Made by a program: the position numbers and the translations under genes. A stretch of 64,000 nucleotides of DNA from NCBI GenBank assembly GCA_041650935.1, contig JBAZKH010000001.1:219337-283336 (forward strand), written 5' to 3'. A model generated the notes under the pieces. The model was not told the DNA's origin, did no database searches, and was given only the letters and a program-made list of their open reading frames with translations. Below are positions 2,995 to 50,200 of this stretch, piece after piece. Source of the stretch: Candidatus Omnitrophota bacterium (GTDB lineage: Bacteria > Omnitrophota > Gorgyraeia > 2-01-FULL-45-10). Position 1 is the stretch's first letter, and each line of letters begins with the position of its first letter.

Positions 2995-5013
<2,019 letters not shown>

Positions 5014-5642: not shown

Positions 5643-6258
5643 TCCCGATATTTTATTAAAGACCTTTATCGTGGGGCCGCTTGCCGTAAATAGCTACCTG
5701 TTGGCCGATAAATCCACAAAAGACGCCTGCCTGATAGACCCGGGCGCGGACCACGGGCGGATAAAAGCATATATAGCCAAGAGCGGTTTCAGCCTGAAGT
5801 TCATAATCAATACACACGGACATGGCGATCACATCGGTTCTAACGGGAATTTCAACGTCCCTATCTATATCCACAGGCTTGACAAAGATTTTTTGACGGA
5901 TCCCGGCAAGAACATGTCGCGCGTTTTCTTCTTCTGCATAAGATCTCCCGAGGCTTCAAGGCTGCTTGAGGACGGCGACCGGATCGATCTCGGGAAGATC
6001 CGGTTGATCGTTATGCATACTCCGGGCCACACGCCGGGGTCGATCTCTTTAAGCGCCGGCGGGATCGTCTTTACCGGCGATACGTTATTCAATATGAGCG
6101 TGGGCAGGACTGATTTCGATTATGGCGACGAGCGGGCGCTATTCGATTCGATAAAAAATAGGCTCTTTACGCTTCCCGACGATACCGTTATCTATCCCGG
6201 CCACGGCGATCCGTCGACGATAGGCGAGGAGAAGAGGTCGAACCCATTTCTGAACTGA
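5626..6258 (+). CDS. MBL-fold metallo-hydrolase
   Basis: HGHGDH zinc-binding motif (INTHGHGDHIG), ~210 aa, glyoxalase-II-like. Confidence 0.85.
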   Translation: MNPRNDPDILLKTFIVGPLAVNSYLLADKSTKDACLIDPGADHGRIKAYIAKSGFSLKFIINTHGHGDHIGSNGNFNVPIYIHRLDKDFLTDPGKNMSRVFFFCIRSPEASRLLEDGDRIDLGKIRLIVMHTPGHTPGSISLSAGGIVFTGDTLFNMSVGRTDFDYGDERALFDSIKNRLFTLPDDTVIYPGHGDPSTIGEEKRSNPFLN

Positions 6259-6289: not shown

Positions 6290-7177
6290 ATGGAGCATTT
6301 GATCGAAGAGTTTCTGAATTATCTTACGGTCGAAAAGGGCCTTAGCAAGAATACGATAGCGGCCTATGGGGCAGACCTTCGCCGTTTTGCCGGCCGTATG
6401 AGTGCCGTAGGGATAAAAGATATCGGCAGGATAAGGCGGCAGGACGTGATGAGCTACCTTCTTTATCTTAAAGATAAAGGGATAGGCAGTAATTCGATAT
6501 CGCGCGCTCTGGTAGCCATAAAGATGTTCTACAGGTTCCTTGTGCAGGAGCACCTTGCGAAAGAGGATGTCTCGGGCGTGATAGAGTCCCCGAGACTTAT
6601 AAGGGGCCTGCCGGATGTCCTTAATATCGATGAAGTCGATAAACTGCTCGGCATGCCGGACTTAAAAGACAATGTGGGGATACGGGACAGGGCTGTGCTC
6701 GAACTTATGTATGCCTCGGGAATGAGGGTTTCGGAGATAGTCGATATCCCTAAAGAAGGCGTTAATCTCGATGTGGGTTTTGTAAAGTGCAGGGGCAAGG
6801 GCGACAAAGAGCGGATCGTACCCATAGGCAGGAAGGCTAAAGAGGCTATAGCGCGATATCTGGAGAAGGTCAGGCCTGCGATGCTTAAAGGTAAAGAGGA
6901 CCCGCACCTCTTCATTTCGCGGCTCGGCAGGAAGATATCGCGCCAGTCTTTCTGGAAGATGATAAAACGGTACACGAAACTCGCGCGGATAAAGAAAGAG
7001 ATTACGCCGCATACCCTCAGGCACAGTTTTGCGACGCACCTTCTGGAGAAGGGCGCGGATTTGAGGGTCGTGCAGGAGATGCTGGGCCATTCCGATATCG
7101 CGACGACGCAGATCTATACGCACGTCGATAAGACGCGGTTAAAATTAATACACAAACAATTCCATCCGCGGGCGTAA
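6290..7177 (+). CDS. xerD: tyrosine recombinase XerD (XerC/XerD family)
   Basis: Catalytic region HTLRHSFATHLLEKGADLRVVQEMLGHSDIATTQIYTHV and a C-terminal ...HPRA, as in E. coli XerD. Confidence 0.85.
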   Translation: MEHLIEEFLNYLTVEKGLSKNTIAAYGADLRRFAGRMSAVGIKDIGRIRRQDVMSYLLYLKDKGIGSNSISRALVAIKMFYRFLVQEHLAKEDVSGVIESPRLIRGLPDVLNIDEVDKLLGMPDLKDNVGIRDRAVLELMYASGMRVSEIVDIPKEGVNLDVGFVKCRGKGDKERIVPIGRKAKEAIARYLEKVRPAMLKGKEDPHLFISRLGRKISRQSFWKMIKRYTKLARIKKEITPHTLRHSFATHLLEKGADLRVVQEMLGHSDIATTQIYTHVDKTRLKLIHKQFHPRA

Positions 7178-29200: not shown

Positions 29201-32200
29201 GATGAGGAATTTTGTAAAGAGCTGTATTAAACCTAAAGGGCTTAATATAATGCTCGATTTTGTAACAAACCAGATAGCAGCCGACGCTCCGTGTATATTC
29301 AATGATAACACTAAGAACCTTGTCTGGTCGTGGGATAGCGACGCAGAGTTTTATGCGCATATGCGCAGGTTGGGCCGCGCGGATTGGAGCGACAAGCGGC
29401 TTGAAGAAACATTTCTGATTGGCGCCGAGGTGCGGGGATATCGCGAATATTCCCGTGTGGCCAAAGGCATGCTCTCCGGGACAGGCGGAATAAGAGCGAT
29501 GGATGAAGACGAACTGCAGATATGGATAAATAAGGGAACGCTTCCTCCCAGGTTTACTTCTTACAGGATTGTACGGCATCTCGAGAATGGTTCGCTTACC
29601 ACAGCTTTGATCAATTATTCGGAAGAGGTCAATCGCCGTTACATGGGCGGCATCGTAAATATGATGGCTGATATGACGCTTGAAGGCGGGATACGCGGTG
29701 ATATAGTCCATCGCGCATACTGGAATAAATATTTCGACGATCATCTCGCGCCGCTTGGTATGTCAAGAGAGGAAGCCGGCAAAAAGATGCCGGGTGAGAT
29801 CATGGATGAGCTTATGGCGGACTTACGCAGAGAACATCCCGGCACTCGATTCCTGGGTGAGGTGCACGATTCGCCCGGCAAGGACGGCAATATTAAGTTC
29901 TTTGCCCGGATGGGCGAACGGCAGGGGATCAATGCCACTGCCTATTACAAAGATTATTCCGATGAGGTGCTTTCAAGAGGCGCTGCACAAAATGTGAGGG
30001 CATATCTATTCGGAGTGAATGATGAAGAGCAGAGAGGCCGGACGACGATGTTTACGAACCACGACGAGGCGACCGGACTCGAGGCGCTCGGCTCCATAGA
30101 GCGCGTGCGGGCGGCGGCAGGAATGTGCGCCATGCATGGAGGCCCTGTGCTTATACCTCTTACCGAGATCCTGCCGGAGCGACGACCAGACGAGCTATGG
30201 CCTTCCGATCGCGGCCACCCGGCGCACAAGAACTGGCGAGACTCGGCAGTCCATATACCACAGTATGATTTTACCCGTCTCGATGTACCTTTAGCCGGCC
30301 AGTGTCATTTCTTCGGCCGCCCCGGGTTTACCAAGGCCCGGAGGCATTGGGTTAATGCGGAATGTGTGCGGAAATTCCAGGAAGATATTGCCGTTGCGCT
30401 GGAAAACGATGAAGGTATTCACGCAATCGTGAAGCCGGCATATATAGATTCCCTGGAGAATAGCGGCCTTGTGGCGATGATCCGCCGCTCCAGGAAAGAA
30501 GATCTTCTTACGATATGCAACGATTCGGACGTTTCTACCGAGATAATGATCTGTCTCGACCGCGTATTCGGCGCAAACAGTACAGAACCTCCAATCGAAG
30601 GGGAACTCGGTAAAGTGCTCTATTCGGAAGGCACGAAAGTCTATTCGGGACCCAGGACACTTATAGTGGAGTTACCGGCATACGGGTACAGCAACTTCTC
30701 TTTCCGCAAAACGGAAGCTTCCAGGAAAAAGGAAGAGGCCGTAAAAGCGCTTGTGGAAGAGGTGCATAAAAGGGCGCGGGCGGAAGAGAAAACATGGGCC
30801 GGTAATTTCTATCAGCATTACCGTGACCGTCTGGGTGAACGTGAATTCGGGGTCGTCTTTGAAGATGCTCTTGAGAGGCTTCTTTTTTCCGGCGAGGATA
30901 TTGAGCGCCGGGGAGCGGCATGGATAATATCGCATGACGAATTTTTGGGTCCGGTTGCGTTAAAGCAGGACTGGGACCGGATGAAGCTCGAAGAGCTCTT
31001 CAGGCCGCTGGAAGACCGCGCCGTCTTACCGTTTGTTCTTGCGCATGAAACGAAAGGACTCTGGGCCATCACCAAATTCCTGGAAGAGGTTCCGTCCAGA
31101 AAAGAGCACTGGATCGTGGCCCAGCTTCTTGCCGCGGCGATGTCGGTTACGGATATGCAGTTGCGTACCGAGATAATGAAAGAGGTATTCTCCTCGATGC
31201 CCGTCACTTTGCCGTCGATATCCGGCGAAGGGCGCCTGCTTATGCCGTCGGGCACGGAAGAGACATTGATGCAGCAGCATTATAAGCAGACGTCTTTAGT
31301 AAGCGTCAAGAAACTTACGGATATGATCGGCCCGGAACTTGCAGCGAAGATATACCTCAAGAGATACGGCAACCATAATAACGATGAGCCTGCTTATGAG
31401 ATCGCCGGCGAAGAGACGAACCTGACCTTAAAAGACGCTGCTTCGAAAAATGGTTGGATAGCGGCGAATACGTCCTGGAGCCAGGCTAATGGCAATACAT
31501 TGGCACGGCAGCAATTGGTCAAGCTTAAAGCGGAATCCCGGGAGGCGATGGATGCGTTTGCGCTTACCGTAGGCGGTGAAGCATATCTGCTCTTTTTCGG
31601 CGATGGGCATAAAGGCAAGATCCTGCCGGAGAGCTTCGAATTCTTACCCGAGCCCGATCCTGCGCACAATTCCCCCGGGCTATACATCCTATTCGACGCC
31701 TGGAAGAAGGACTCGTACGGCGTTGTTACGAAATCCGGGCTTATATCGGACGGCCTGCCCGTAGATATACCCGCCGGCGGACAGATGATCCTGATGCTTG
31801 CTCCCCCGGAAAAGGAGCGGCCCGAGATACTGCAGGTGTCGGTCGAATTTTTAGGCGGTATGGACAAGCTTGGAGACAATCTGAAGCAGTTACTCGACGA
31901 TATTTACGCGGCGCCCGGCGGCATTATATGGTTTGTCGGCGCGCATCCGAAAGGCGAAATAGGCAAGCTTCTGAATGACGGACCGAATCTGTCGGGTATA
32001 TATGCCCGCGATATCGAGCATGGCGGCAGGAACTATCGTGTGGCTACGCATGGTCCGGTAAAGAGCGTGACGAGCGGCGATACGGCATCGGCATTCTGTG
32101 TTACGGACCTGAAAGATCCCGTGGTTATCGGAAAGATGAAGACGGTTCTCGATGCGCTCGGTAGACGCAGGCCCATAACCGTATTCGATTTAACAGGGCA

Positions 32201-35200
32201 TCTTAGTATCGACAGTCCCGTCATCCTTGAACATCCCGACTGGTGTAGACCTTTTACCGGGGTTCTTCAGGAGTGGCGGCAAGGCGGTATTCCGGAAAAC
32301 TTAAAGGAAGAAGACATACTGTCTATGCCGGGGATCTGGGGATGGGGTTTCCTGCTTTCGGTGCCTTTGGCAGATCCGAAAAAACCTTTGGTGGAAGACC
32401 CTATTGTCCGGAAATTGACAGAGCGGGGTTTTGTCTTTGGGCGGGATCCTCTGGATAAAGACAGGATAAGAGTGCTTGTTTGTCATCATACCAGCGATTT
32501 TGGGCCGATGCCGGATATTGCCAGCCTGGACCTCAATCATCCGGAAGTGCGCCAGTATTATCTGGATACGTTCCGGGCATGGCTGGAGGCCGGCGGCAAT
32601 GGATTCCGAATCGACCTTGCCTATCATTTCCCGTCTGAACTTTTGGGCCTCTTCAAAAAGAGATTCCCGAAGCTTACATGTATTACCGAATATTACAATG
32701 TATTCGGCCAAATGATCGATGTCCATCATCGCACAGGTATAGACGGTTTCTACGACCATGAAGAGTTATGGAAGAAGGTCCGCGATTCATTTTCAATGGC
32801 AGATTCATCAGAGCCTCTCCAGGCGTGGCTATTCGATTTCCAGAAATATCTGGCCTCTGGCGTTTTCGTACATTATCTATCCAATCATGATGAGGATACA
32901 GCCCTGAACATATTTGGCGGAGACAGGAGAAAATATCTTGCCGCTCTTGCGTTCATCGCATTCCTACCGGGGTATCTGATGATAAACTTTCCGGATGCCC
33001 TGGGATTGATGTGGCGCGGATATACTGATGCCGCCGGAAAGACGAAGTATGACATATTAAGAGAATTGCCGTTTGCGAAATTTATGAGATTAGCGCGCCG
33101 GGCCAATCAGGGCCTTGACGGTGAGACTTATGAAGGGCTGCCGTATGATGTTTCGCTATTGGGAAATGTAAATAATATAGTAGCAAGTAGATCTGCCGAT
33201 ATATTCCGCAAAGGGATCGGTTTTGTGGTCCCGAGAAGAGAAGATGGCATTGCATGGTACAAGCGTACCTATCACGGCAAGACGGCCATCGTAATGATAA
33301 ATTACTCCCCCCTTCCTAAGCAAGTCGATCTAAAAAGATATATAACAGAACCCGGCATAAATGTCGGCACCGCCCATTTCCTGCCGTTCGAGAGCCGTAT
33401 CTATTTTATAGAGGACGGCCGTCTCTCCACCCCGCGGGGAATAGTCAATTTTAACGAATTTTATAGAAAGGCGCTGGAGGAATTTTACGGCGACGTGAGT
33501 GACGGTGCGTGGGCGGAGCGGTTCTGTGTTATGTGCCGTAATGAGTTCCAGGGCCGGTCCGATAGGGATTTCAGGGCTGTCTTCAGGGATATTAAATCCG
33601 CTTTAAGGTTTATGTTCCGCTATGGCCCGGATAATGTTAAGTCCGCTGCCGACTGGATGGTGAAGGATCACGAGAAGGGACTGTGGGAACAGTTTAAGTA
33701 TGCCATAGAAGCCGATTTTTACGCAATGGCGGATCAAAGTGATCCGGATTCTCCCCAGGCCAGGCGTATTTTACGGGGGCTGCTCGAAGATACAGCTACG
33801 TTCCCAGGGTTGAGGGATACAGCATTCGGATATGTTAATAATGCACTTGGTGAAGCGTTCAATAGCGGGGACGTTATGCGGATGCGCAATATCTTTTACG
33901 TAGAGGCGGGCCTTCTCCGGCAGGAAGACGAGCTGTCGTGGGCCGGCAAATTTATCGAGAAACATAAAAACTCGTGGGCCGGCAAATTCGACGGTACGCA
34001 CAAGATCGATTGGCGTTCGGACGGGTTACTGCTTGCTTTCCGCGACGTGGTACTTGCGTGGAACCGGTCCGAGGGCCCCATGCATGACGCGGCGCAATGG
34101 ATACTATATAATTTACAGTCTGATTTTTCCGCGCCTTTCCTAGGCTATTACCGCCTGACGATAGCCGATATAAACAGCCGTCTTGAGCGCGGAGAAAGAT
34201 CGACGCTCGGTGACATGAAAGATCTTCTCTCTGAGGTTGCGGAGATACCCGGTTTAGCGGCACAGATCGGTAATGATGCTATAGGGGGCATGCATAAAGG
34301 GGTTCCCAATCTAACCAATGAAGACTCATTGGCCGGCCTGCTTGGCATGGAAGCTTCTTTGTTGCAACAAATGCATGGATCGGGCTGGGCGAAGATATTT
34401 ACGGAAAACTACAAAGATAAATGGCAAGGTCCTTCAGGGCGGGAGCAGAACAGGGTGTTTCTTGCGGCTTTCCGCAACGTAGCGCTTGATTGGAACTCCA
34501 GCAATGACGAGTCCACCAGTTTTGCCGCCAAATGGATGCTCTATAATCCCGATTCTCCGTATTCGGCCGAATTTTCAAGACCTTATGTGGAAGAGCTCGA
34601 TGAGATAGGGCGGGCATTTAAAAAGCCGGGCTCGCCGGCTTTTGATGCGCTGGCGGCATTCCTTGCCCGTGCCGATAAGATATCGGGCTTAAGAGAGCAT
34701 CTTACCGGCAAGGCTATCGAGACGGTGCGCGGTGCGGCAGAGTCATGCTCGGGAGATCGGCTTAAGAGCCTTCTCCGTCTCGAGGCGAACTTCCTGAAGG
34801 AGTTGCGCCGCGAAGGATGGGCGCGCGAATTCATCGAAAGCCATCGCAAACAGTGGAAAGACCATGACTTTACGGATGTAATTCTCGAATGGAACCGCAG
34901 CGAAGACGTTCCAACCTTTGCGGCGGCCCAATGGATGCTATTTGGTCCGGATTCTAATTTTTCATCGGTATTTTTCGATAAGTATAAAAGCGATATCAAT
35001 GACATGCTGGAGAGCGTAAAGAAGACGCCATCGGAGCATGGTCCAGAGGTTTCCCGTACCCTGGAGTTGCTGCTTCATGATGCGCGATATATACGGGGGC
35101 TTAACAAGCGCCTCCTCGAAGAGATGACTCAAAGGATAAATATTGGACATGCGCCCGAGGATATTGTCTTCTATTGTGAGATAGCCGCCGAACTGGCCCG

Positions 35201-38200
35201 TGCTCAAGCCGACCCGCAACTCGCTGCCAGGATATTTAAATTGGTGCAGGATGCCCGTTCACACCCTCCGCAGCCCGAGCTATCCGCTTTCCTTATGACG
35301 TATAACCTGTTTATATTAACCGTATCGTTCGTCACCTGGTTGACGGGGGAGATGCTGGGCACAAATAATCTGATAGGTTTGTATGGAATGTCAGGATATC
35401 TATTTGCCGTCTTCCTGCCGTTTGCCGCATCTATTCTTGTCCATGAATTCGCGGACTATTTCGCCACATGGATCAAGACAGGAGAACGCCCCTACTTACC
35501 AAGATTCAAAGGATTATCATTACAGGTCACGCCGTCTTTCGAAGGCCAGGAGATCGTAAACATCGGCCCGTACGCCAGCGCCGCATTAACATTCATCGCC
35601 TTACCTATATTATACCTTGCAGGAGTAAGTCCGCTCTTCCTGGCCATTACAGCCGCCTACTCATTCGTCCACACTATATTCAGCGATAACTTCCTGTTCC
35701 TGAAGGCGGCCGCCAAAAAGCTTGGAATGCTACAAGCAACATATTGGTGGAACGAAAAAAAACACGGCGGGATCCTATGCTCGCTATTCTCCGGTAAAAG
35801 GAAGGATGACCAGGGCATAGGCGATCTTAAGTGGCTGGATATGTTTATAGATTTTGCCGACAAACAGGGTGCAGATATGATTTTCCTGCTTCCTACAACC
35901 CAGATAAATCCGGGTGGGATCCCCGGCCTTTCAACGCCTTATGGCAGTATAAGTACATTTGCGCAAAGCGCCATCATGTACCTTCCTCTTGACGAATATC
36001 TGGACAAAGCAAAGCTTGGCGAATATATCGATTCGTTTGTCGCGGGCGACGAAGCGAAGAGGCAAAAATTATTGGAAGCCCTGCGGTCGCGGAAGATCGA
36101 CTACCCGTTCATCTATGCGTTTAAGAAACATTGCTGGTGGCAGGTATTCAAAGACCGCTATCCGGGAATGAGCGTCGACGAGAACACCGAGTTCGATTCG
36201 TACGTGCGGCAAAACAGGGATTGGATTGAAGATTACTCGCTATTCCATGCTCTTTTTGCCAAATTTGATAAGGCGTGGTGGGATTGGGACGATAAATACA
36301 AAAATCGGGACGAGAAAGCGCTGGATGAGGCCAGAGAAACATGCAAAGAAGAGATATCGTTCTACAAGTATATGCAGTGGCTTTACGATAAGCGATGGAA
36401 AGAAGTAAGAGTGCATGCCCGCGAAAAGGGTAAACGTATAATAGGTGATATGCCGCTTTATCCCGAACCAAATAGCGCCGATGTTTGGGCGTATCAGGAC
36501 TTGTTTATCGGATCGAAACGCGCCGGCGCGCCCCCAGAACCAGGCATTTCAGATTTAGGACAGAAATGGCAATTCTGGCCGTATAACTGGAAGTATAAAA
36601 GTAAGGAGGTGCTGGGATTCCTTGAAAAACGTATACGGCATATGGCGCAACTCTATGATGGTATCCGTATAGATCACGTTTTAGGGCTTCTTCAGGAGTG
36701 GAATGTGGACAAAAGTGACGAAGTAAAACCCACCGAAGGTGAGTGGGTTCCGGAAGATAATAAGGTAGCTATAAAATTCGGCAGAAAAAATCTCCGCCGG
36801 TTAGCAAAGGTAGCCGCCCGGACAAATACGCTGCTTATAGGAGAAGATATAGGCGGCAGAGATAAGTCTATCATAAAAATGATGGACGATGTTTGTGAAA
36901 GGCTGCCCAACTTCTATCTTTTCCATATGATAGGCTGGTTGGAAGATAAGAGGCAGGATAAAAAGCATCTATGGACGTTTGACGCCGGCCACGATCAGCC
37001 GTGCCGCTTTGCTTTCCGTTGGGAAGAAATGAAAAGCGTTAATAATGAGATAGATATGAGAGGGGTGAGGCATTTCTTAGCCTCTCATGGCGAGACCATC
37101 GCCGATTCCGATACTCCGGAAGATGTGGAGAAGAAGGTGTCGAGGGCCTTGAGGCGGATGCCGTTCTACTCGTTTACATTGCAGGCATTGCTGAAAGCGC
37201 CGAAAGAAGCCAGGATAAATTCGCCGGGCACGCAGAATTTTGAGAACTGGTCATGGAGATCGCAGGATATCGAAGATCTTCTGGAGATGGAAGACCTTGG
37301 CTATTACTACAGGGAGGAACCGCTGGCTGTCGCGGAGGAAAAGAATAACCGCGGGGTCGGTACGCCGTTTGCCGGGGACGCCGCGTTTTCGAATGACAAT
37401 GTATCGGTCAGTTCGCTCATTGCCGGTCTTGGGCTGAAGCCGGGAGCGAGCCAGGACGATATCGACGGAGTGATTATAGAAGCCGTCAATGACCCGGCCG
37501 GTAACGACACATTATTGCAGATATTAGGTTTTAATAAAACACAAAGAGAGGCCCTGGCTCAGGCCTTAATGCCCTCGCCTAAAGTGAGAAGCCTTTTCGA
37601 AAAAGAGAGAAATTTTGCGGGGATTGAGTATATAGTCAGAGTCCCGGGCATTAAAGAGGCAAGGATAGAGAGTGCCCGCGAGAAGGTAATGCTGGGTATC
37701 CAATGCTGGCATGATTACGGGCACAAATTTGCAAAGTTTGTGGCACTCGCTTACAATATCAAAAAGGGCGACAAGGAAGATGAAGTGCGCGGAAAGATAG
37801 AAAAGATCATGGGGGAATACGCACCAATTTTAAGGGACAGGGAATTCCTGGAAAAGATGTCTGACTATTTTGAGCATTATCCGCCGGTTATGCTATCGCT
37901 TGTTTACGTTTTGTGGGCCCAGATACGCGCCGGCCCGGAAGAGGAGATCAAGCCCTTAACAGAAGCCCTTCTTAAAGTTTCACGGATTAATATTGGCACG
38001 CCGTTAGAATATATCCCATATTATAAATTAATTGCTGTAAAGTATCTAGCCCTCTTAGGCGTAGATAATACCCACTCCATAATAGTTCCGCTTGCCCAGC
38101 ATCCTCAGGAGGATGATTTCTTTAGGACCGCTTTTCAGACACTTGTATTTATAGCTGCATCTAACAGGCTGAGAAGCCTCTTTGACTTTGTAGGTCCCAA

Positions 38201-41200
38201 GGCAGATCCTAAAGCGGCCAGGCTTGCCGTAAGGATTGTGGTTGCGGCACACCCGGCCGATAGCGTCTACGCAAAGTTCCTTGATCTTGCGGCGCAATAC
38301 CCTGATGCTGAAGTCCGGCGCATGGCCGAAGAGGCTAAAGAGAAGGCGTTTCCTTCTTCCGCTGCTCCGTGGGAAATCGATGATCAGGCTAACCGGGCAG
38401 CCGATCCTAATGACGGCTTGACTCCGACTGATATGTGGGGCGAAGAAGATCTTTCGGGAAAAGCTCCCCAAAAAGAGGATGGCGAGATATACCAGCAAGT
38501 TCAATTGATGCTGCAGGTTGCGCCTCCGGTTCTCGTTGAAGTAACCAATATAAAAGTTTGGAAGCGATTGTTGCAGGAATTAGGACACAAAGGTGAAGCG
38601 TACTTTCTGGGCGAGACAGATGATATGCCGCTCAAGACAACCGCCGCATGGGCAAATAAAATCTATCCTGAGCATACCTCGGAGGATGTTCAGCATATAT
38701 ATGAAGATGCCACGCGCATACCGCTTGCAAACATGTTTAAGATGTTTGTGTTCGGCGATTTTCCCGCCGTAAAGTTTCATGAGAGGCTGCACGCTGCCAT
38801 GTCCTTAAGAGCGCTAAAGGAAGGCACTTTATATAGAAAAGAAGACGATTCAGTCTTTAATGGTACGGAAAGAAATGATGCCAAAGCGCTGAAGGCTCTA
38901 TCGGGTAAGTATGACGATGCGAGGGAAGCCTTCAGGGGGCTGGAAAGCGCTTTAAGTAATTATCCTGGCGGGGAATTATCCCAGGAATTATTCGCGTGGC
39001 TGGGTACAATTGATCGTTATCCGGATTTTATAGGGAAACCTTCTTTCCCTGAAGGCTCGGAGGAGGCCGAATATTTAAAGCATTACTTTGATCCAAAAAA
39101 GAGAAGCACGGCCGTAATGCTTGAGCCCACACGGCAATTTATTGCGGTCGCCCGGAGACATCCTGAGATCGTGGAATTTCTGCGCCAATATTATGGAAGG
39201 CTCCAAAAATTCACCCAGGAGACTGCGCCATTTCTCGGTTTTACAAGCGGCCAGATAGCGGCGGCGTTTGGAGGGTATGCGCCTCGAAACGGCGGCGGAG
39301 GAGCGGGGATGGTCTTGGGTTGGGCGCCGTTAAAAAAACGGCACGGATGGTTGCCGACAAGCTGGATGTTGTTTCTGCCGATCTTTGGCCTTTATGTTGT
39401 GGATTGGAATCGCGGTATCAATAGGCCGGAACCGCCGGAAATACCTGTTTTTGAAAATGGCCACGCTGGTGGTGAACTCTTTTGTTTAAGCAAAAAGAGG
39501 GCTATGATACCGGTAGCGGGTGCTGTCAAGGTAAAACGGGACGGAGAATATATCGTATTTTATCATGAGAATGAGGCGGATGTCCTTTATACAAAAGATG
39601 GGGAAGAGGCGCGTATTAAAGTAATAAGTGAAGATCAAAATTCCGGAATCGCGATTATCGAGGAGAATAACAATATCTGCGGGTTCAACGGTGAAAATGT
39701 GGCTTATGCAACGCGTGCCGTTTTGAATAGAGAGGTAGAGTTCTTTAGAGAAAGGAGGCTCCGGCATTACGCTGCCGCGCCCTTGACGGCAAAAAAGAAA
39801 GAACCTATCGATGATCCTGTATCCCTGAACCGGAGGGTGACGGAAGATGTTAGCCACAATCTAAAGCGCCTGACCCGCGACGGCCTGGTCTTTATGGATA
39901 TTTGCGCCGGGCTTTTTAAATTGATAAAAAAACGCCCACCGTCAAATTATGCGGAACTTTCCAGATGGGTGGATTCAAAGGACCATTCAAATACGCCTTT
40001 CCCCGCAAGGGAAGATTTGGATTACGATCTTGACGCTTTAATGGAAGGCCATTCTTCGTTCAGCCTGATCCGGCAAAGATTGAATTTTCCGGCGGTCGAT
40101 ATTAGTGAATACAACTGGCTCAGGCAGGGATGGGCTGTGCTCTGTCCGGAATTGATAACTTTGCTGAAAGAATACGGAAATGACCGGCAAAAGGGCTACG
40201 CGGCAATGTGGGATCACCTGAATGAACTTTCATCCGCCGCTAAAATTGTAATGGTTGGCAATGCGCTGGAAGAAGAGGTGAGAATACGCCGTGAATTGTC
40301 TGAAGGTGAACGTTTGGAACTTGTCAAAATCAAGTTATTGTCGAAGCTTGCCGTCGAGCATCCGGGTGTCCTTATAGGAATAGTCAGGCAGTTATACGGA
40401 TTGCGGTATTACCATGAGCTAGGCATTATAGAGGATATGTACGCGAGGATTGAATGCGATATTCCGCTTGAGATAAAAGATATAGTTATCGATGCTTCGC
40501 AAAAGATAGACATAGCGAAAAAACTACATCGCATATATGGGCTGCCTTTAGAAGAGGGCCTTTATTGCGTGACGGACGAAGAGATAAATGGCCGCCTGAA
40601 AGAGAAATTTCTAACTGCCGAAAATAGCAACCGCCTGTCGTTTGAGAAACTCAAGAATCTTATAATGGTACTGGATAATTTTGTCAATGCACCGCCCTAC
40701 TCTAAAAGCGCTAAAGTAAGTGCGAAAAAAGATCTCAGGTTCAATGATTATGAACGAGCCTCAAATATCGTGCATCGGTTAAGAGCGATAGACGAGCATA
40801 GGTTTGCCGTTACCTTGCAGAGGTTAGAAAGGGTGGTGAGCAGGTGGGAAGAACGCGTTGATCGCCAAGGCGCTTATTCGCAAGCCGGTTTGGTAAAATT
40901 GCTATGGACTTTCTGGCATTCGACAAATATCGGTGAGGAGATGGCCAGATATACAACCGATATGATAGGCAAGCCGCCTGTCTTTACCGACCTTAAGTAC
41001 AACATTATCTTCGGAATAGAGGACGATGTCAGCGCGGGCCCAAAGAAGTCGAAGGCGAAACCGGGGAGGCCAAGAGGCTCATATAAGAAAAAAGCCGGCA
41101 AAGACAGCATAGAGCCCGGCATGCTTGACGCGGTTCTCGCCGTAGGCAGGTGGTGGTATAACAAGGTAAAGAAGCTGGGTCTGGACGAAGAAGATCTGCG

Positions 41201-44200
41201 CGACAGGACCGCCCTTAACATAGCGCCGTGGCTCGAAGAGACGGTTAAAGGTATAATCTTCGCGGGCATATACGCATTGCTTTGCTGTTACAACCCCGCA
41301 CATCCGTTATTGAATATCGCTATGTTTACGGTAATGGACATAGGAGTCGGCATAGTATTTACGCTCCTTCATCTGGACAGTGCCAGGGCTCCGCCTCAGA
41401 CCCCGAGAGATATTCTTATCGCTCCCGCGTTGATAAGCCTTTTCGACGCCATTATGTTCCCATTGGCCGTCATTGTTACTACGCTGACCGTATCAAATTC
41501 TATCCTTATAGTCATAGCCATAATGATGATCGCGATTCCCCAGGTCACCATATTCCATTATGAGATAAACAGAAGAGTCTACGAATTGCGCAAAGAAGGC
41601 GCGAATTTAGGGTACGCCATGCTGGGCGGCGATAAGCCGTCCGCCGCGGCGGGTGAGGCGGTAAGCGATCCGTCAGGATCGGCAAATATTACCCGGCGCA
41701 TAGCAGATATCCTTTCCGACGGCCGTCCTAGGGCGCGTGAAAAGTTGGTACGCATGTTTAAAGGTAGTATACCGTCGGATCAGGTAATGGATGCAATAGA
41801 TAAGATGATAGAGTTGCGCGATATTACAGAAGACGGAAGCGTCCTGAGAAGCGAGTCGTCCTTAGTGTCTCCAGAAGAATTGCTTATTAGAGACGCGGTA
41901 AGATTCATGGCAGATGCAGGGTATCCCATCAGTCCGAAAAGAAATGAGTATTTAAGCGCGGAAGATGAACGGAGGCTTGTTGAGGATGGGAGTGAAAAGT
42001 CCAAGCATATCCTTCTCTTGTCTCAACTATTATGGATCAAGAGCCACGCCGAATATCTTCACCGGAGAAATCGCGGCATTCCGGTTATTGATTTTATGCA
42101 TGCGGGGATAAAAGCGGTTAACGATGTTTTGAATGAAGAAGATGCCGCGACGCGGTTCGACCCGTCTAAGAGCCGGCTAAGCACCTACGTAAAACGCCCT
42201 ATTACGTGGAAGATGGCCAAGCTGGTTGAAAAAAAATCTCCCTTGAGATTACAAAGCATTAGCCATGACAAGGAACTTGCGTATAGAGACGCGGGACCTA
42301 TGCCTCAGGCGTCCCGGGCCCAAAAAGATGAAATCAGGAAACTCCTTCTCTATGTAGACGAACGGGAAAGCGAGATAATCCAGCTATTTTTTGGGCTGAA
42401 CGGAGTTTCGTTATCCCCGGAGGAGATCAGTGTCTTGTACAAAGGCCGCCTATTGCCGGATTCGATTCAAAATAGCGTATCGAATATCTTGAAAAAGCTG
42501 GGCTTGCCGAAAGACGGAGGACAGGGCTGTGTCGCGCCGCTTAGCCCGTCTCAGAGAGAGCACCTTTTCTCGCTTAAAACGATCCGCATGGTGGAAGATT
42601 TTATGAATAATCCGCAGAGGGCCGATAGGCTAGCGCCGCGCGACCGTGAAGTCATCCGGCTGATGTACGGGTTGGAAGGCCGGCAAACGCTCTCTTCAAG
42701 AAGCACGGCCGGTCTTTTAGGCATAGCCCATAGCCGGGTCGACCAATTGCGCGATAGGGCAATGTCGAAAATCAGGAAAGAGTATGAATCGACATGGGAA
42801 GAGGCTAGCCGCATGGCCGGCGGCATTACGGAAGAGGAGATGTGCCTGGCCCATGAAGAGGCGATCAGGAAACTGCAGTTCGACGATGATTTTACTCCAA
42901 ACGGCAACCTTCCCACCGTATACGAATTTGCTTTAGAACTTCCGCATAGAGCAGAGAACCTTAGCGTAAAAATGGTTAAGCGTTTGATCGATATTTATAA
43001 TTTAAGGCATCCGGCAGCTCCTCTGGAGTTTCGCGGATATTCGACGCCGGGCACCCTCGGGGAACCGGAGCCGCTGCCGGTGACGGACGGTCTGCGTGAA
43101 AGCGCCGGCTATTCAATGGAAGCTTTGGTGAATGGGGAGGTTTTGACGCCCCGGGCCAATTTCGTTTCGTTGATAGCCAGGCAGAAGGCTCTTGCATATA
43201 GCATAGAACAAGGCGACCTGCCGCGCGTGAAGAGCCAGGTTACTCAGGCTATTACCAGGCTGAGTATGCGCGCGCGAAACTTACAGGCCGGGAAAGTAGC
43301 GAGAAAACTTGTAGGATCACCCGCCGTAAAACTTGCGAATAACAAAAATTTATTAGGCAATGCGGTAGGTTATCTGCAGAAGTTGGTAGAAGCAGGCATG
43401 GTCTTTTCCAGCGAGCCTGCCGGTACAGATATTCCCGCCTGTGCCTTAGGCAGTGCGGCGCTTGTCCTGGAGGAGCGTTTGCTTCAAGGGGATGCGCTGA
43501 TCTTCGATTTAATGCTTGCCAAAGAAGGATATACGCTATATGCGAACTCTGTAGGCAGTAAGCGCGATGCTTTTGACAAAGAAGCGCGTGGCATGATGGC
43601 AGCGTTTGCGGTCTATTGCACTTTCAGTGGTGATGAGAGAAAACATTTAGAAAGCATATATGTTCTTAAAGATGGAACCGGTAAAAAGAAACTCGGCTTC
43701 CTGCCGCTTTTAAAAAATATATATGACAAGGCCGTGATCAATGAAGCATTCGACATCGAGGGGCCGATCAAGGAGTACGTTAAAGGTGCCTACCCCGGTA
43801 TCGAAAACGAAGAGAGTTTTAAATTGACCAGGGAGGATTTATCTGTAGGCAGCCAAAATGACCTATTACCCGCCTATGATCCCGAATTTTTAAAATCTAC
43901 CAGGAGGCATCCGTGCAATATTACCGAACTTCCGGACGGTTTTAATTATAGCCGCATTGTAAGTGTTGGAACAAAGAGTGTGGTTGTGAAGGTCTATAAG
44001 CCAAAGGCTGGGTCGACCGATTACGATCTTCTAAGTATAAAATATTACAATGATTTTCAAGGAGAGGGAACTATAACACTAACGGCAAAAACCGGTGGTG
44101 AATATACTTTAGGTGGAGAAGGCGGACTGCCGTGTTATGATGCGGCAGGCATGATCGCACACCTTAACGGAACCCGAGTTGCCTTAAGGGCTATTTTAGA

Positions 44201-47200
44201 TCCCGCGCAGAATAAAGAGATTGTGGCGTTATTGGATGGATTGAGCTTTTTAGCGAAACCGGTAGAAATAACCAGTAAAATTTCAAATAGAGAGAATAGA
44301 ACTATATATGTACAATTTGTAACTAAGGAACAAGTTGAAATAGCTAGAAGGCAATCGGCTCGCAAAACAACTCAAGCGAGAGAATTTGTTCCAGTGGAAC
44401 AAATGTTAGATACCGGCATTCTCATCGTCCCCGGGGAAAACTTAGAGGATAAGGATCGTATAGGCGAAAAAGCGGAAGGACTTAAGAAAGCTTTCAATGG
44501 TATGGGATTTGAGAATGTAAGCATCGGGTCTCTCGATGCCGCGGCAAACTATGCCCATGTTGTGATATTTGTAGAGCCGGATGAGGAGACTTATGGCGCG
44601 TGGAATAGTACTTTTGAAACCGCGTCAAGGATGTATCCCGGGACTGAGATCTTTAAGTGGTCGACTAAAAGCGGAGGATTGTACCGGTGCTTTAAAGGTT
44701 GGGACGGGGAGCGCATTAAGGGGCACTGGACGGTTCCTGTGGCAGCGCAATATATCGCTCATAGCATAGAGTACGATTTTAAGTTCTACGTCGGCGACCG
44801 GTTTCGCTTTGCGTTCCCTCCGGAAGTGATCGACCTTCCAGCGGCAAAAAAATCTGGATACGATAATCCGGAGAGGACGGATCGGGCAGGATTAAAAGAA
44901 AAGATGGACAAACTCCTGAGAGCGGCCGAAACATATGTCGAGAAATCGAGCGCTTACGAAAAAGAGATCGTGGACCGCAGTGAACTCGCGTTCAATTCAC
45001 GGCCCGCGTATGAATTTGCAGACCGGGTGCCGCGCCTGATATTTGAAAACTTAAAGAGTGCGGGAGCTGAAGAAGCTCGCGGATTGAGTCTGCGGGAAGA
45101 CGATGAGATAAAGATACAATTTGGAGATGATGGCGAAATTTGGAATGCCGTTGTAGCAGAAGTGGACGAAGGCAGGGTCGTGTGCACTGTGCCGCAGGGC
45201 CTGGACCTGAAACAAGACCTTGGAAAGACCGGAAGAATAAAGAAGAGATATAACGATGTCCCGGCAAAGGTGCAATTAGAATTTTTGCAGTATGCCATGG
45301 AACCTGATAGCGGGCATGAGAGCCGTAAACCTCTCGTGGACATAGCGCTGGGCCTTCAGCCTAATCGAACTACAGATGGCAAAGATATTACCCGTAATGC
45401 AATTCTTTTCAACGATAAAGTCGGCAATAATGAAAATCAGCTCCAGATGGTATCGCAGGCGCTGAACGGCCGCTCCATAGAACTCGGCTGGGGGCCGCCG
45501 GGCACCGGCAAGACTCAGGCAGCGGCCGCCGAGGTAATATACCAGAATTGGTGCATGGGGAAGACCCAGCTCATAGCGGCGCAGACAAATAAGGCCGTGG
45601 ATAACCTTCTCCTTAAAGCGAAAGAGATGGGGATAAAAGTTTACAGGGTAGGTAATCATCCCGGAGTCATCGATCCGAAACTGCGCGAGAACTGGATATA
45701 CGCGGACAGGCCAAGAGAACCCCGCGAAGAAGATTTCAAGACGAACCAGGAGTATATTTCAGCCAGGCGCAAATATAAGGATGATTATGATGCATGGCGC
45801 ATGGCATTAGTGAATGAGATCGTATCCGGCAGGGCCATAGTTGGCGGCACGTGCATGGGTATTGCTATGGACAGGTTCATAAATAAGGAGCTGTTGGGCC
45901 ATTATCTGGAGGATTTCCGGTACTTTAAGTTCGACAGGTGCATTATCGAAGAGGCGAGCGTGGCATCCTTCGCGGAGCTATTGCTGGTTTTAGGCAAGGC
46001 CAAAGAGAAGGCTTTTATAATAGGCGATCACCATCAATTGGGATTATCTCCAATGCAACCGGAGCTTGTAGAGAGATTGAAAGCGGCCTCGCTGGGAAAA
46101 GATGAGATCGATGCGATGCAAACGAGCCTGTTTGAGTTTTTGCTCAACCAGGACCATTTTACCCTGACGATGCTTGAGGACTGTTACCGCCTGACCCCAC
46201 TGCAGGTTAAGTTGACCAATTTCTTCTATGATGGAAAACTGAAGGCGATGAGAGAGGTCTCTCCGGAACGAAATCGCGCATCCTTGGTTGTAATAGATAC
46301 TAAGAATGTGCCTCACAGCGATGAACAGATAGGCACGTCCTGGATCAATGGATACGAGGCCGACCTTGCGCTTGGAGTGATAGAGCGCCTGGGTAAGGCG
46401 GCGGATATGGATGTAGCGCACTTAGGACTGATAACGCCTTATAACGCTCAAATTACATATCTCAGAAATGAATTGAGGAAAGATATGCTGCGGAATTGGC
46501 CGGGCCGTGAAGCGTATGAGCGGATCTCGAGGGTCATGGGCAATGTAGGTACGGTATGGCCGTTCCAGGGGCGCGAGAAGCCGGTGATAGTAATTTCTCC
46601 GGTTTGCAGCAACTCGAGCGGCAGGACCGGATTTATGTCGTGGAAGATGTGGAACGTGATGACTTCCAGGGCGCAGGAATCTCTGATAGTAATTCTGGAT
46701 TCCGACACATTCCTGGCATCCCGCCAGGAAAAAGTACCGGAGTTTACAAGGCATATGCTCAAGCTTGCGAAAGAAGAGGGGACTTATATAGAGCTTACGC
46801 CCGGTAAGCCTAAACCCAACCTGTCAGGAATAGTTACTGTTTTAAAACAAACTTTAGCCGGTGAGTATAAAGGAAGACTCCCGCTATTTCCAGGAAGGTC
46901 TTCCGGAGGCACGCAAGGCCGGCCTGCTCCCGCCGCGCCGGCGGAGGGATCGGGCGAGGATAAAGAGAAAGGCCAGATCGCGCGCGGGGATCCTAAGGCG
47001 CTGGTCGATGCGTTATTGGCGCAGCCGATCAAGCCGATGAGGGGCTCAATAGATAAGCAATGGATATCGGAATCGCTGAAAAGAAGAGTGGGCCGTTCCC
47101 GGTTATCTTTACGTGAGAAGGCAATTATGCGCGCCAGGATAGATGATGTGCTGAAGAATAACCGCTTAGCCGAATTCGACGCGATAGTATTGAAAGACCA

Positions 47201-50200
47201 GGCCGATAGCAAACTTATCAAAGGATGGCTGCTGGGATTTAATACCCTGCCCAGGGCTCCCGATGCCGCAGGTGATGAACATTTAACCGCCCTCCAGAAA
47301 CGCCTCTCAATGCAGGGGAAACTATCCAATACTATAGGTCTCGCAACCCAGGCCCTCGATTATATCGGATGCGATGAGTCTCTCCTCCAGGAGTATCTAT
47401 TCCATGAATTTTTCTGCCCATATTTGGGTCATGAGCGGACAAGGATCACGCAAGAAGAGATATTCAAAGAAAATTATCCGCAAGGCTCTTCCACTGCCAT
47501 TGGGCTCGATACCCGCCCGGGCCACAAAGACGGCGAACTGTCGGCGGTATTGCAATTGGTTATAAGCGCTATGCATGATGGAGTGCCGGGGTCCCGGCCC
47601 GGATGGTATAGGAAAAAGAGCGGCCATACATATCTCATGAGGCCGCTATATCCCGAAAAAGCTGTTTCAAGGGCGAAGTTATTGGACCCCGCGGATGTAA
47701 GGATAGACCTGGGGAGCATAAGAAAATATATGGATGAACTTATGCGGAGCGGTAAAAGATTTATTGTCGTGACTTCGCCTCATGTTGTCGAACAGATGAG
47801 GGTTTGGGGATTCCCTTACTATAAGGAATTGCGCAAGAAAAGCATTCTTGTGAAATCCGTGCACTATAAATACATGGACGGGCGGTTGGGGCGTTACGTG
47901 AAAGACGCTCTTAAGATCGAAGACCGCCCGGATGTGATATTGGGGATAGGCATGGGATCCGTATCGGACTGGTCGAAGATCATGGGGCATAAATTTTCCT
48001 GTGATGTTACGTTGATCCCCAGCGCTCTTTCGACGAACGCGCCGTTTTCCGCGAATGTGGCCGTGCGCGATGAGAATAAGGACGGCGGGGAGTTCGGTGT
48101 ATATGGATGGCCTGCGGGCGCCGCGCGCACCGTTTGCGTCGACAGCAGTTTCATCTCCATGAACTGCCGCGGAAACCTGTCCGGAGCGGGGGATCTTATC
48201 AGCTGCTGGACGGCGCTTCTTGACTGGAGGTTTGCCTATGAACACGGCGCTGAGCCGAAGGATCCGGAAAGGGATAAGGTGTTTAAAGAGGCATTGGAGC
48301 ATCTTAACGAGCTAGCCGATACAGCCCCCCGCATCAACGCGAATACTCCCGATGGTATTGAGACGGCCGCGAGGCTTAATGCCAAAGTTTCCAGGCTGAT
48401 GACTAAGTTCGGTTCGGGCAGGCCCAAAGCCGGCAGTGAGCATATACTGTCGGATACTCTTGAAAGGGTGACCAGGCCCAGGAAGATACTTCATGGCGAG
48501 CAGGTGGGCGTATCGACTCTTATAATGATGTATCTCTATAGCAAAATTTACCGGCGAAAAGGCGGGAGATACCCGAAAAATGTTGATGTTAAAGATCTCT
48601 TTAAATTAGTTAAGGCCATGGGGATATCTTTGGACCTGGAAAGGATAGGGCTTACGAAAGATGATCTGGAAGAGGCGCTCATTTCCGCAGAACCCAGGCC
48701 GGGAAGATTTTCCTATTTCGATGTGAATAAAGTTACCCGCGAAGAAGCCCTCGAAGCCGTAAACGCGATCTTCCCGGATAAACCGGCTAGGCCTGCCGCG
48801 GCGGTAAACCCGGCCGCCAAAATTACCCGTCGTTCACTGACCCGGCCAGTGGATGGAGCGGATAACAAGGTTTCCGGGGCCTCTACGGTTGAGGTGACTG
48901 CGGAGGACCTTATGGGTTGGGAGAACGATGTCAGGGACAGGCTGGCGTATCTTAACGACAAGATCGGAGGCTTGGAAGATACGATAGGGATGCGCAAATC
49001 TGATGAGGTGAATCTCTCCCCGTTTAAGCGGGATGAGTATGATTATTACCCGCTTCATACGATAGAAAAACTTATCGATATTAAAGCGAAGTTTGAAGAG
49101 GAGCTCCGATGGGCGCGGAGATTTGAGCAGGTTATTCAGGCCGCCGCGCCGCGATCTTATGACTGGACCGCAGGTCCTGAAGTGACACGCGCGTATCCCG
49201 TATGGGCGCTCGGTAAATTCAATCCAAGATTAAGGAGGGCCTTTATACATTGGGGTATTATAACGGTCGGAGATTTAGTGAACCGGACACCCAAAGATAT
49301 TGTCTCTGCCTGGGATTGCGACAAAGGAATGCTTAAAGAGTTGCAAGCCAGGCTTAGCGAACGCGGCCTTGCGTTAAGAGAGGATCCGGTTAGTTTCCAC
49401 CCCGGGGTGGAAGATTCGAGCAGGGTGCCTCAAAATGGGACGTCTACGGGAATACTTTGGAATAATATCTGTCTTTTGGGTTATAATCCGCCGGAATATC
49501 CGGACGACAAGCCTCTAATTGTTACGGAAAAAGATTCATTGAACGCGGTTCGTGATTTCTTTACACGCGAAAATGGAAAAAATGCCACTTTTATTCTGTA
49601 TGATATTTTTAAAGAAGATATAAATCTCAACTCCATCCGTTCAATAACTGCATCGGGATGTCAGGCCGGATGGTTCTACCAGGTATATCGAGCCGCTATT
49701 GAATTGAATGACGGCAGGAGAGGAGTTGTTATTTTACAACTTCCAGCAAGGTATGGCGACAGAAACGAGCTTATCGCCACAGATTATAATAATTTACAGC
49801 ATCTGTATCGACTCCATCCGGGTATCGTAGTGCGTCCAATTTGTATTTCCGAAAGCCGTACAGGCAGAGACGATGGGACTTCTGCGCTTAATATTATTGC
49901 TGCCGAATGTTTAAGCGAATATATGGAACTCAATCCACGCCAATATTCGCCTTATGCTGTAGTGTCCCCTTATTATGGTTTCGAGCTTAATGCTTTCAGG
50001 CGAAGAGAGCCTGCCGCGCAATATCAGCTTGACGCCGATCGTCAGAATTCAGAAAACGTATTGAAAGGACTTGTAAAGAATATGGTTATTCTGGCGGACA
50101 TAAATCTCGAGACAGAAGCGGTAAGCTTTGTAAGTCAGATAGACATTGGCGCCGGTGATTTTATGGTAAGGCCGCGTGTTGACGGACAATTTGACGCTAA

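Follow-up and report, generated by a model that had tools for sequence, protein, structure and literature searches.

Why should a giant membrane-anchored protein carry pieces that resemble the bacterial transcription machinery? The question is raised by a stretch of 64,000 nucleotides from Candidatus Omnitrophota bacterium (assembly GCA_041650935.1, contig JBAZKH010000001.1, positions 219,337 to 283,336 of the forward strand), which is called the window below and whose own numbering is used throughout. One uninterrupted open reading frame (ORF), at positions 23262 to 52184 of the plus strand, encodes a membrane-anchored mosaic protein of 9,640 amino acids (aa), hereafter the giant. A first-pass annotation, made from the letters of the sequence, had pointed to a segment of this protein like region 2 of sigma-70, to two segments like the helix-turn-helix (HTH) of region 4, to one like the carboxy-terminal domain (CTD) of the alpha subunit of RNA polymerase (RNAP) and to an AT-hook. 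All six peptides that it quoted are present in the ORF, once each and in frame. The likenesses go beyond generic HTH similarity, since profiles, shuffled controls and library searches all favor homology. We therefore take the segments to be real, strongly diverged homologues: one of sigma-70 region 2, two of region 4 and one of the RpoA CTD. Judging from the residues that they have exchanged, they have most likely ceased to serve as an initiation factor or as a polymerase subunit.

The sigma-like part begins with a domain resembling regions 1.2 and 2.1 to 2.4 (positions 41943 to 42227, plus strand, aa 6228-6322). Its region-2-like motif, RFDPSKSRLSTYVKRPITWKMAK, occurs once and in frame at aa 6298-6320 (positions 42153 to 42221), and by direct reading the stretch from LSAEDERRLVEDGSEKSKHILLLSQLLWIKSHAEYLHRRNRGIPVIDFMHAGIKAV to RFDPSKSRLSTYVKRPITWKMAK follows aligned sigma factors through regions 1.2 to 2.4. 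Custom region profiles were built from 24 free-standing sigma factors only, neither this giant nor the second one described below being included, and 300 block-shuffled copies of the whole giant protein were used as the control. The custom profiles match the giant at three places and nowhere else, namely aa 6228-6322, 6355-6390 and 6456-6508. At the first of these the region-2 profile gives 6.2 bits, a score reached by none of the 300 shuffles, though the shuffle maximum is close (5.0). When the second region-4 copy was left out of the query, TIGR02937, the NCBIfam model of sigma-70 factors of the extracytoplasmic function (ECF) type, still matched with an E-value of 1.2e-4, aligning aa 6268-6390 with profile positions 24-140 of 165. 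This span leads from region 2 into the beginning of a region 4, and its order and spacing are those of ECF sigma factors. Region 2 as the sole query against 1.84 billion proteins found P0036 (P-numbers are our handles for related proteins) with 41.7 bits and E 1.1e-5; P0036 is a protein of 201 aa that matches Pfam Sigma70_r2 with E 3.6e-9. In an exhaustive HMMER search with the sigma segment, the best-matching stretch for P0022, P0036, P0038, P0076, P0078, P0091 and P0117 lies in the region-2 part. In a structure predicted with AlphaFold 2 (AF2), region 2 has a predicted local distance difference test score (pLDDT) of 85-92. The sigma-like segment starts earlier than the first-pass annotation had placed it, at aa ~6228 (position 41943) with the part like regions 1.2 and 2.1, and it extends through a tail to aa ~6598 (position 43055).

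Two region-4-like domains follow. The first (positions 42324 to 42506, plus strand, aa 6355-6415) is joined to region 2 by a linker of 33 aa, a spacing typical of ECF sigma factors, and contains the peptides IQLFFGLNGVSLSPEEISVLYKG (aa 6373-6395) and SIQNSVSNILKKL (aa 6401-6413), each found once and in frame. It scores 9.5 bits with the custom region-4 profile (aa 6355-6390) against a shuffle maximum of 0.9, and as a query on its own it matches proteins built of tandem region-4 repeats with 65-80 bits. NCBIfam gives it weak matches (E 0.07-0.19) at the region-4 positions of SigB and SigC. MzaA was also matched weakly; membership in that family was rejected, the resemblance being confined to region 4, and PADLOC found no defence-system match for the sigma-like part. 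AF2 predicts four helices for this domain, with a pLDDT of 64-77. The second copy (positions 42624 to 42785, plus strand, aa 6455-6508), with the peptide REVIRLMYGLEG...SKIRK found once and in frame at aa 6462-6506 (positions 42645 to 42779), is the best-conserved piece of all. Pfam Sigma70_r4, whose gathering threshold is 24.1 bits, recognizes aa 6455-6506 with a score of 33.0 (E 4.3e-8). The same residues are matched by more than 20 sigma models of NCBIfam, and the best matches among PDB sequences are region 4 of SigA, SigB and RpoD. The custom profile gives 30.2 bits (aa 6456-6508), again against a shuffle maximum of 0.9, and the pLDDT is 88-95. A recent duplication was considered as the origin of the two copies and rejected: only the 14-residue helix of region 4.1 can be aligned between them, RESEIIQLFFGLNG with RDREVIRLMYGLEG, a score that was reached in 1 of 2,000 shuffles.

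Region 1.2/2, the 33-aa linker, the two region-4 copies and a conserved tail of 90 aa form a cassette of ~370 aa. The tail (positions 42786 to 43055, plus strand, aa 6509-6598) could be aligned with the protein P0009 and ends in YNLRHPAAPLEFRG; it has no family match, and its AF2 confidence is low. A custom region-3 profile detected no sigma region 3 in the giant, and no region 3.2-type finger is present. The 301-aa sigma piece scores 43.1 bits with TIGR02937, for which the curated cutoff is 42.9. A word-indexed homologue search with the same piece returned nothing at E<=1e-3, and the exhaustive HMMER search, which covered 1.84 billion representative proteins, gave 119 matches at E<1e-3. The latter include free-standing sigma factors that align across region 2 and region 4, such as P0025 over query residues 65-308, and Pfam confirms Sigma70_r2, Sigma70_r4 or both in P0036, P0022, P0013, P0091 and P0025. 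Each of the sigma sub-segments is significant by itself, with a library-wide E of 1e-5 or better. The cassette was also modeled with AF2 (aa 6225-6600, with the 24 sigma factors as the input alignment), which gave a mean pLDDT of 69 and values below 55 in the tail. In a Foldseek search of the PDB with this model, the top 50 matches are all sigma factors in RNAP holoenzymes, with E from 1.9e-7 and ~300 aligned columns.

The first-pass annotation had asked whether close homologues are free-standing sigma factors. Small free-standing ones, described above, are among the nearest relatives. The other nearest relatives are of two kinds, the first being another giant with the same cassette. This protein, P0009, is the sole long relative found. 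It has 6,109 aa, and its cluster mate P0163 (6,121 aa) is encoded on contig CAYSFB010000008.1 (our locus L002) of an uncultured Planctomycetia metagenome-assembled genome. By BLASTP, aa 6245-6598 of the giant and aa 4579-4940 of P0009 share 27% identity over 377 columns (E 2.5e-23), and this is the single region that the two proteins have in common. It comprises region 2, both region-4 copies and ~90 aa more, ending in YNLRHPAAPLEFRG and YNLAHPATPLKFFG, respectively. The order is the same in both, a weak region 4 being followed by a strong one and then by a tail of the pattern YNL-HPA-PL-F-G. With the profiles that lack both giants, P0009 scores 9.6 bits in region 2, 7.9 in the first region 4 and 34.3 in the second. 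A profile made from the two cassettes retrieved 24 proteins, all of them bona fide members of the sigma-70 family (best E 2e-5 in 5.8 billion); two of these cover 72-74% of the query. When the cassette profile was run against contigs of genomes and metagenomes, only the Planctomycetia giant (L002) and an ordinary sigma factor of 286 aa (L003) came up. Because it is common to two giants that are otherwise unrelated, the cassette behaves as one conserved unit. By sequence, then, a unit of region 2, region 4, region 4 and tail is kept together in giants of two phyla of the Planctomycetes-Verrucomicrobia-Chlamydiae (PVC) superphylum. P0009 differs from the giant in the whole remainder of its sequence, it has no alpha-CTD-like segment, and it contains a motif absent from the giant. 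This is the pentapeptide G-A-R-L-A/S, present in 10-11 copies that lie 110-1,260 aa apart (aa 523-6089), apparently between modules; chance alone would give fewer than 0.1 copies by a rough estimate. The sigma cassette of P0009 sits between the copies at aa 4494 and 5409. These motifs could be linkers or polyprotein processing sites.

The second kind of near relative consists of proteins with tandem region-4 units. P0002-P0008, P0010, P0011, P0016 and P0017 are 300-1,700 aa long and consist almost entirely of such units. Pfam counts at least nine Sigma70_r4 units in P0002 and confirms multiple copies in P0002, P0004 and P0010; the proteins tested have 3 to >9 units each. P0003-P0007 harbor one complete sigma factor amid the repeats, and P0014 has the order region 4, region 2, region 4, region 2. 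We found no description of tandem region-4 arrays in the literature. Among them, P0002-P0008, P0010, P0016 and P0017 are the best-scoring relatives of both region-4 copies of the giant (65-102 bits). They differ from it in that they look soluble and come from A+T-rich organisms; there is no giant membrane protein among them, and none has the cassette tail or the region-2 variant of the giant. Region 4 has therefore been re-used in multiple copies outside classical sigma factors.

The last of the transcription-related segments lies far downstream of the cassette. The alpha-CTD-like segment (positions 49200 to 49403, plus strand, aa 8647-8714) was identified with phmmer against PDB sequences, with NCBIfam rpoA models and with a small profile; the peptide LGKFNPRL...SERGL within it occurs once and in frame at aa 8650-8703 (positions 49209 to 49370). 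RpoA accounts for each of the top 18 matches in the phmmer search of all PDB sequences (best E 9.8e-5). Over ~50 residues, which cover helices 2-4 and an RGL-L tail, the alignments contain no gap; that of HWGIITVGDLVNRTPKDIVSAWDCDKGMLKELQARLSERGLALREDPVSFHPG with the mycobacterial alpha-CTD is an example. Of the NCBIfam rpoA models, six to seven match through their last ~50 positions (E 0.0014-0.08), and so does PRK07758, a 95-residue model named as a hypothetical protein. A profile of three sequences, namely those of Escherichia coli and Bacillus subtilis and a Mycobacterium smegmatis fragment from the PDB search, gives 25.4 bits at aa 8665-8714 only, against a shuffle maximum of 0.7 (none of 300). 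A low-confidence AF2 model places helices at aa 8655-8663, 8669-8674, 8677-8685 and 8688-8700, where helices 1-4 of the alpha-CTD align. Neither an RpoA gene nor a second alpha-CTD-like segment was found in the window. A sequence of the form RGL(S/A)LRED, which ends the alpha-CTD-like segment (positions 49359 to 49388, aa 8700-8709), is seen a second time upstream of the helicase domain (positions 45075 to 45107, aa 7272-7282), with no other alpha-CTD-like sequence around it. By sequence statistics the segment is a homologue of the alpha-CTD (PF03118), one that differs from RpoA in having no alpha N-terminal domain.

Are these homologues still equipped for their former tasks? In region 2.2 of E. 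coli sigma-70, D403, Q406, E407 and N409 are conserved residues that bind core polymerase. The giant keeps D403 (as D6277) and has H6280, A6281 and I6283 in place of Q406, E407 and N409, so that QEGN becomes HAGI; the glutamate aligned with E407 is at least 90% conserved among the 24 aligned sigma factors. Y430, W433 and W434 of region 2.3 are the aromatic residues that melt the -10 promoter element. Here Y430 is kept (Y6309), and R6312 and P6313 replace the two tryptophans; further on, Q437 is replaced by W6316 and T440 by A6319. P0009 is altered at the same core-binding and tryptophan positions: it has SLGI for QEGN, the sequence LSTWITLP, and W, L and P at the positions of Y430, W433 and W434. 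The variant '[KR]P-I-W' is also present in the small free-standing relatives P0022 and P0091; it marks a diverged sigma lineage rather than random decay. In the second region 4, the residues R584, E585, R586, R588 and Q589 correspond to H, S, R, D and Q, R586 and Q589 being kept, which is within the range of alternative sigma factors and compatible with DNA contact. By comparison, the recognition helix of the first region 4 (PDSIQNSVSNILKKL, or SKEEIESRVEMILKRI in P0009) has no basic residues at the contact positions, and DNA binding by this copy, as the first-pass annotation had supposed, is not borne out. In the alpha-CTD of E. coli, R265, N268, C269, N294, G296, K298 and S299 form the DNA-binding '265 determinant', and D259 and E261 contact sigma region 4. 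Only R265 is retained in the giant (R8656); N268, C269, N294, G296, K298 and S299 are replaced by R, A, D, D, G and M, the second hairpin NLGKKS reading DCDKGM, and D259 and E261 are replaced by L and K. DNA-contact competence thus looks limited to the second region-4 HTH and the AT-hook. The suggestion that the modules were captured for DNA binding rather than for sigma-factor function is accordingly upheld in its second half, a classical sigma role being unlikely with such replacements; its first half may apply to the second region 4 and the AT-hook and fits poorly with an alpha-CTD that has kept R265 alone.

The AT-hook-like motif, KKSKAKPGRPRGSYKKK (positions 41046 to 41096, plus strand, aa 5929-5945), has a GRP core with lysine-rich flanks. 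It contains 9 K/R in 17 residues, with PGRP where the canonical motif has RGRP. GRPRG itself (aa 5935-5939, positions 41064 to 41078) is seen once in the giant against 0.011 occurrences expected. The motif has no match in the profile libraries, whose models do not cover motifs so short. Its distance from the sigma-like segment, given earlier as about 1 kb, is indeed ~1.1 kb, but it lies ahead of the start of the interval that the first-pass annotation had drawn around the modules. Between the AT-hook and the sigma cassette lies a cluster of three to four hydrophobic helices (positions 41247 to 41558, plus strand, aa ~5996-6099), recognized in a Kyte-Doolittle hydropathy scan and by reading the sequence directly; this separation does not support capture for DNA binding. 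The same scan located the other helix clusters at aa 16-37, 262-320, 1173-1230 and 4042-4129. That at aa ~5996-6099 is the final membrane anchor ahead of the C-terminal arm, and the cassette starts ~130 aa past it. The C-terminal 3,500 aa are probably cytoplasmic because they contain domains dependent on ATP, NAD(P) and acetyl-CoA (a helicase, an Fe-ADH-like domain and a GNAT domain) and because the sequence right behind the last membrane helix is basic.

Taken together, the findings lead us to propose, with moderate confidence, that the modules have been re-purposed for docking and DNA contact on the cytoplasmic arm of a membrane-anchored mosaic giant. Loss of sigma and alpha activity is suggested because most of the residues for gripping the clamp helices of beta-prime, opening the -10 element and binding the UP element are replaced. 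DNA contact would fall to the second region-4 HTH, perhaps aided by the AT-hook; the other three modules, namely region 2 in its diverged form, the first region 4 and the alpha-CTD-like domain, would bind proteins. A Upf1-like helicase is located between the sigma cassette and the alpha-CTD-like segment, and in concert with it these docking modules would keep nucleic acid, or proteins related to transcription, tethered to the giant at the membrane.

Several points weigh against this proposal. The cassette was found in just two giant proteins, and neither of the other giants examined, P0009 and the 6,480-aa protein P0001, contains a counterpart of the alpha-CTD-like domain. The loss of residues is no proof that RNAP binding is lost, because ECF and phage sigma factors vary at many canonical positions. 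Concerning homology, the profile searches that the first-pass annotation had called for were successful with Sigma70_r4 in the second copy; Pfam Sigma70_r2 did not match region 2 in the 301-aa piece or alone, the first region 4 alone has no Pfam match either, and support for both comes from intermediate sequences and home-made profiles. RNA_pol_A_CTD gave 12.5 bits (E 0.13) against a gathering threshold of 23.8. Superposition on known structures was similarly divided. The cassette model matches holoenzyme sigma factors only, yet its sigma-like fold is not independent proof because the AF2 input alignment consisted of canonical sigma factors; the single-sequence AF2 model of the alpha-CTD-like segment (pLDDT 42.7) is not usable and has no Foldseek match. 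Lastly, the membrane topology comes from a hydropathy scan only. If the cluster at aa ~5996-6099 has three helices, the AT-hook and the cassette would be on opposite sides of the membrane; with four, they would be on the same side.

Other explanations must be weighed against the docking proposal. First, the cassette may be a working sigma factor, tethered to the membrane or made as a pro-sigma factor, which acts after proteolytic release or on local promoters, by analogy with ECF sigmas that have membrane-spanning extensions and with the processing of pro-sigma-K/E. It has a complete region 2 and region 4 in ECF-like order and spacing, TIGR02937 is just over its cutoff, and the second region 4 keeps R586 and Q589 of the -35 recognition helix. 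The position close behind a membrane-helix cluster and the conservation as a unit in giants of two phyla would also suit such a factor, and the 10-11 GARLA motifs between modules of the Planctomycetia giant could be processing sites. However, both giants have other residues in place of the melting tryptophans and at the core-binding positions of QEGN, known sigma factors have nothing that corresponds to the extra region 4 or the 90-aa tail, and there is no region 3.2-type finger. Moreover, Pfam detected no protease domain in the giant and a motif scan no recurrent cleavage motif. With these points against it, a working sigma factor is a possible but unlikely explanation.

Second, the modules may be passengers, fragments of housekeeping genes that were accreted by a giant mosaic and now drift without function. 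The giant is patched together from domains that are unrelated to one another (glycogen enzymes, helicase, ADH-like, GNAT), the long proteins of Omnitrophota are reported to be mostly sequence singletons, and little is left of the residues on which sigma and alpha-CTD function depends. The absence of the alpha-CTD-like domain from the other giants examined would likewise be expected of a passenger. Against this stands the retention of the cassette, including its non-sigma tail, in giants of Omnitrophota and Planctomycetia. Since these proteins have nothing else in common, such retention would scarcely be expected unless selection acts on the unit. In addition, the reading frame is intact across 28.9 kb, and hydrophobic cores and helix patterns are preserved. 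For these reasons we regard functionless drift as improbable, though still to be reckoned with.

Third, a more specific role is conceivable, in which the cassette would be an undescribed membrane-tethered sigma-like device of PVC-superphylum giants that couples RNAP or the chromosome to a giant membrane protein. Such a device could be a processed pro-sigma factor controlling the giant gene or its partners, or a fixed dock for RNAP or DNA; in the latter case the alpha-CTD-like domain and the Upf1-like helicase could work on the same nucleic-acid complex. We consider this quite unlikely.

Fourth, the C-terminal arm, or pieces of it, may be a delivered effector whose sigma and alpha-CTD mimics disturb transcription in a host or prey. 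Omnitrophota have been described as host-dependent or predatory, with giant proteins directed at prey (10.1101/2023.11.21.568195), and mimics with altered core-binding surfaces could serve as decoys. Pfam, however, detected no secretion or translocation domain in the giant, the enzymes on the arm are cofactor-dependent and of cytoplasmic type, and the cassette is also found in a Planctomycetia giant, so that this explanation is very improbable. Least credible of all is chance or generic HTH and helix-hairpin-helix (HhH) similarity, which would agree with the misses of Pfam in region 2 and the first region 4, its subthreshold score for the alpha-CTD and the failed structure prediction there, but which is opposed by the library-wide significance of every sigma sub-segment, by the collinear order region 2, region 4, region 4, by scores that none of 300 shuffles attained, and by significant PDB matches that are all sigma factors or RpoA, no other HTH or HhH family being among them.

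How far the cassette has departed from known sigma factors can be summarized by comparison with the ECF-like sigma-70 family (TIGR02937; PF04542, PF04545). As in that family, region 2 is followed after ~30 aa by region 4 with no region 3 in between, the score is at the family cutoff, the second region 4 is over its Pfam threshold, and the predicted helices and fold match sigma factors of holoenzymes. Whereas sigma factors are free subunits of 20-70 kDa, the cassette of the giant is enclosed in an uninterrupted membrane protein of 9,640 aa, and it differs further in its second region 4, its conserved tail, HAGI for QEGN, RP for WW and the first recognition helix devoid of basic residues. By domain homology the segments are members of the sigma-70 superfamily; in core-binding motif, melting residues and state as a free subunit they depart from functional sigma factors. 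Likewise, the alpha-CTD-like segment is a homologue by sequence statistics that falls below the Pfam threshold and lacks the DNA-binding determinant, G296, K298 and S299 being lost.

The remainder of the giant is consistent with what is known of long proteins in this phylum. Very long proteins of Omnitrophota have been described as membrane-anchored mosaics of unrelated enzymes (West-Roberts et al., 2023, 10.1101/2023.11.21.568195; Nielsen and Lui, 2026, 10.64898/2026.06.07.730766). The giant resembles them in its host phylum, its several membrane helices and its unrelated Pfam domains, which include sugar enzymes and GNAT; its 9,640 aa are just under the arbitrary threshold of 10,000 aa of the published catalogue. 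In all, seven unrelated Pfam families and five membrane-helix clusters were counted. Pfam places, on the plus strand, a GDE_C domain at aa 1276-1688, an alpha-amylase core at aa ~3086-3360, a GH77 4-alpha-glucanotransferase at aa 4181-4668, the Fe-ADH-like domain at aa 8143-8274 and the GNAT domain at aa 9193-9291. The Upf1-like helicase of superfamily 1 (positions 45429 to 46700, plus strand, aa 7390-7813) matches Pfam AAA_11/AAA_12 and, in PADLOC, MkoA of the Mokosh system (E 1.7e-55). MkoA is its best match in the defence library, and no other Mokosh component is present. SecA-like, dockerin and C39 peptidase domains were not found in the giant with Pfam.

The N-terminal half (aa 1-4668, positions 23262 to 37300) thus holds three glycogen or starch enzymes with membrane-helix clusters between them. 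It also contains an internal duplication, positions 23748 to 24290 being repeated at 26496 to 27029 (aa 163-343 and 1079-1256) with 52.7% identity over 184 aa (E 1.3e-51), and each copy has two hydrophobic helices (LGIIAIWAGM..., AVPYAYPIAVPIALL...). No recurrent linker or cleavage motif like the GARLA of P0009 was found in the giant; there is only the octapeptide SFHPGVED, which occurs twice, at positions 49389 to 49412 and 50721 to 50744 (aa 8710-8717 and 9154-9161). One copy is directly 3' of the alpha-CTD-like segment and the other ~30 aa ahead of GNAT, so that it may be a module-boundary motif.

The ORF is flanked by housekeeping genes. Upstream are genes for PNPase, FtsK, RodZ, RimO/MiaB and PgsA, and downstream the opposite strand carries a LigT-like gene and CinA, after which come RecA, RecX, AlaS and HisD. 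Base composition is even along the ORF. No identical copy of the giant was found in an exact look-up, and a word-indexed homologue search with its C-terminal 4,641 aa returned P0001 only. A block of ~200 aa in P0001 is 43% identical to aa 7902-8104 of the giant (positions 46965 to 47573), and further similarity is seen with aa 37-174, 367-476, 924-1107 and 9459-9567, that is, toward the N-terminus and the C-terminus. The domains of P0001 are phosphoglucomutase, methyltransferase and HATPase. This suggests that the giant and P0001 belong to one family of giants, whose ends are conserved and whose interior varies.

What does the locus mean for the biology of such giants? Published accounts of Omnitrophota-type long proteins stress carbohydrate enzymes, adhesion and secretion, and transcription-machinery domains go unmentioned. 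Neither of the two preprints (10.1101/2023.11.21.568195; 10.64898/2026.06.07.730766) mentions sigma or alpha-CTD domains, and we found no report in the literature of such modules in giant proteins. A sigma-derived cassette beside a membrane anchor in two phyla raises the possibility that some giants may be wired to DNA, to RNAP or to regulators. If instead the modules are inert, the locus would document how pieces of housekeeping genes are taken up and worn down in giant mosaic genes. At ~370 aa, the cassette is small enough to be expressed and tested, and it provides a handle on the function of giant proteins in the PVC superphylum. The giant also adds to the evidence that sigma region 4 and the alpha-CTD are general-purpose modules, re-used outside RNA polymerase.

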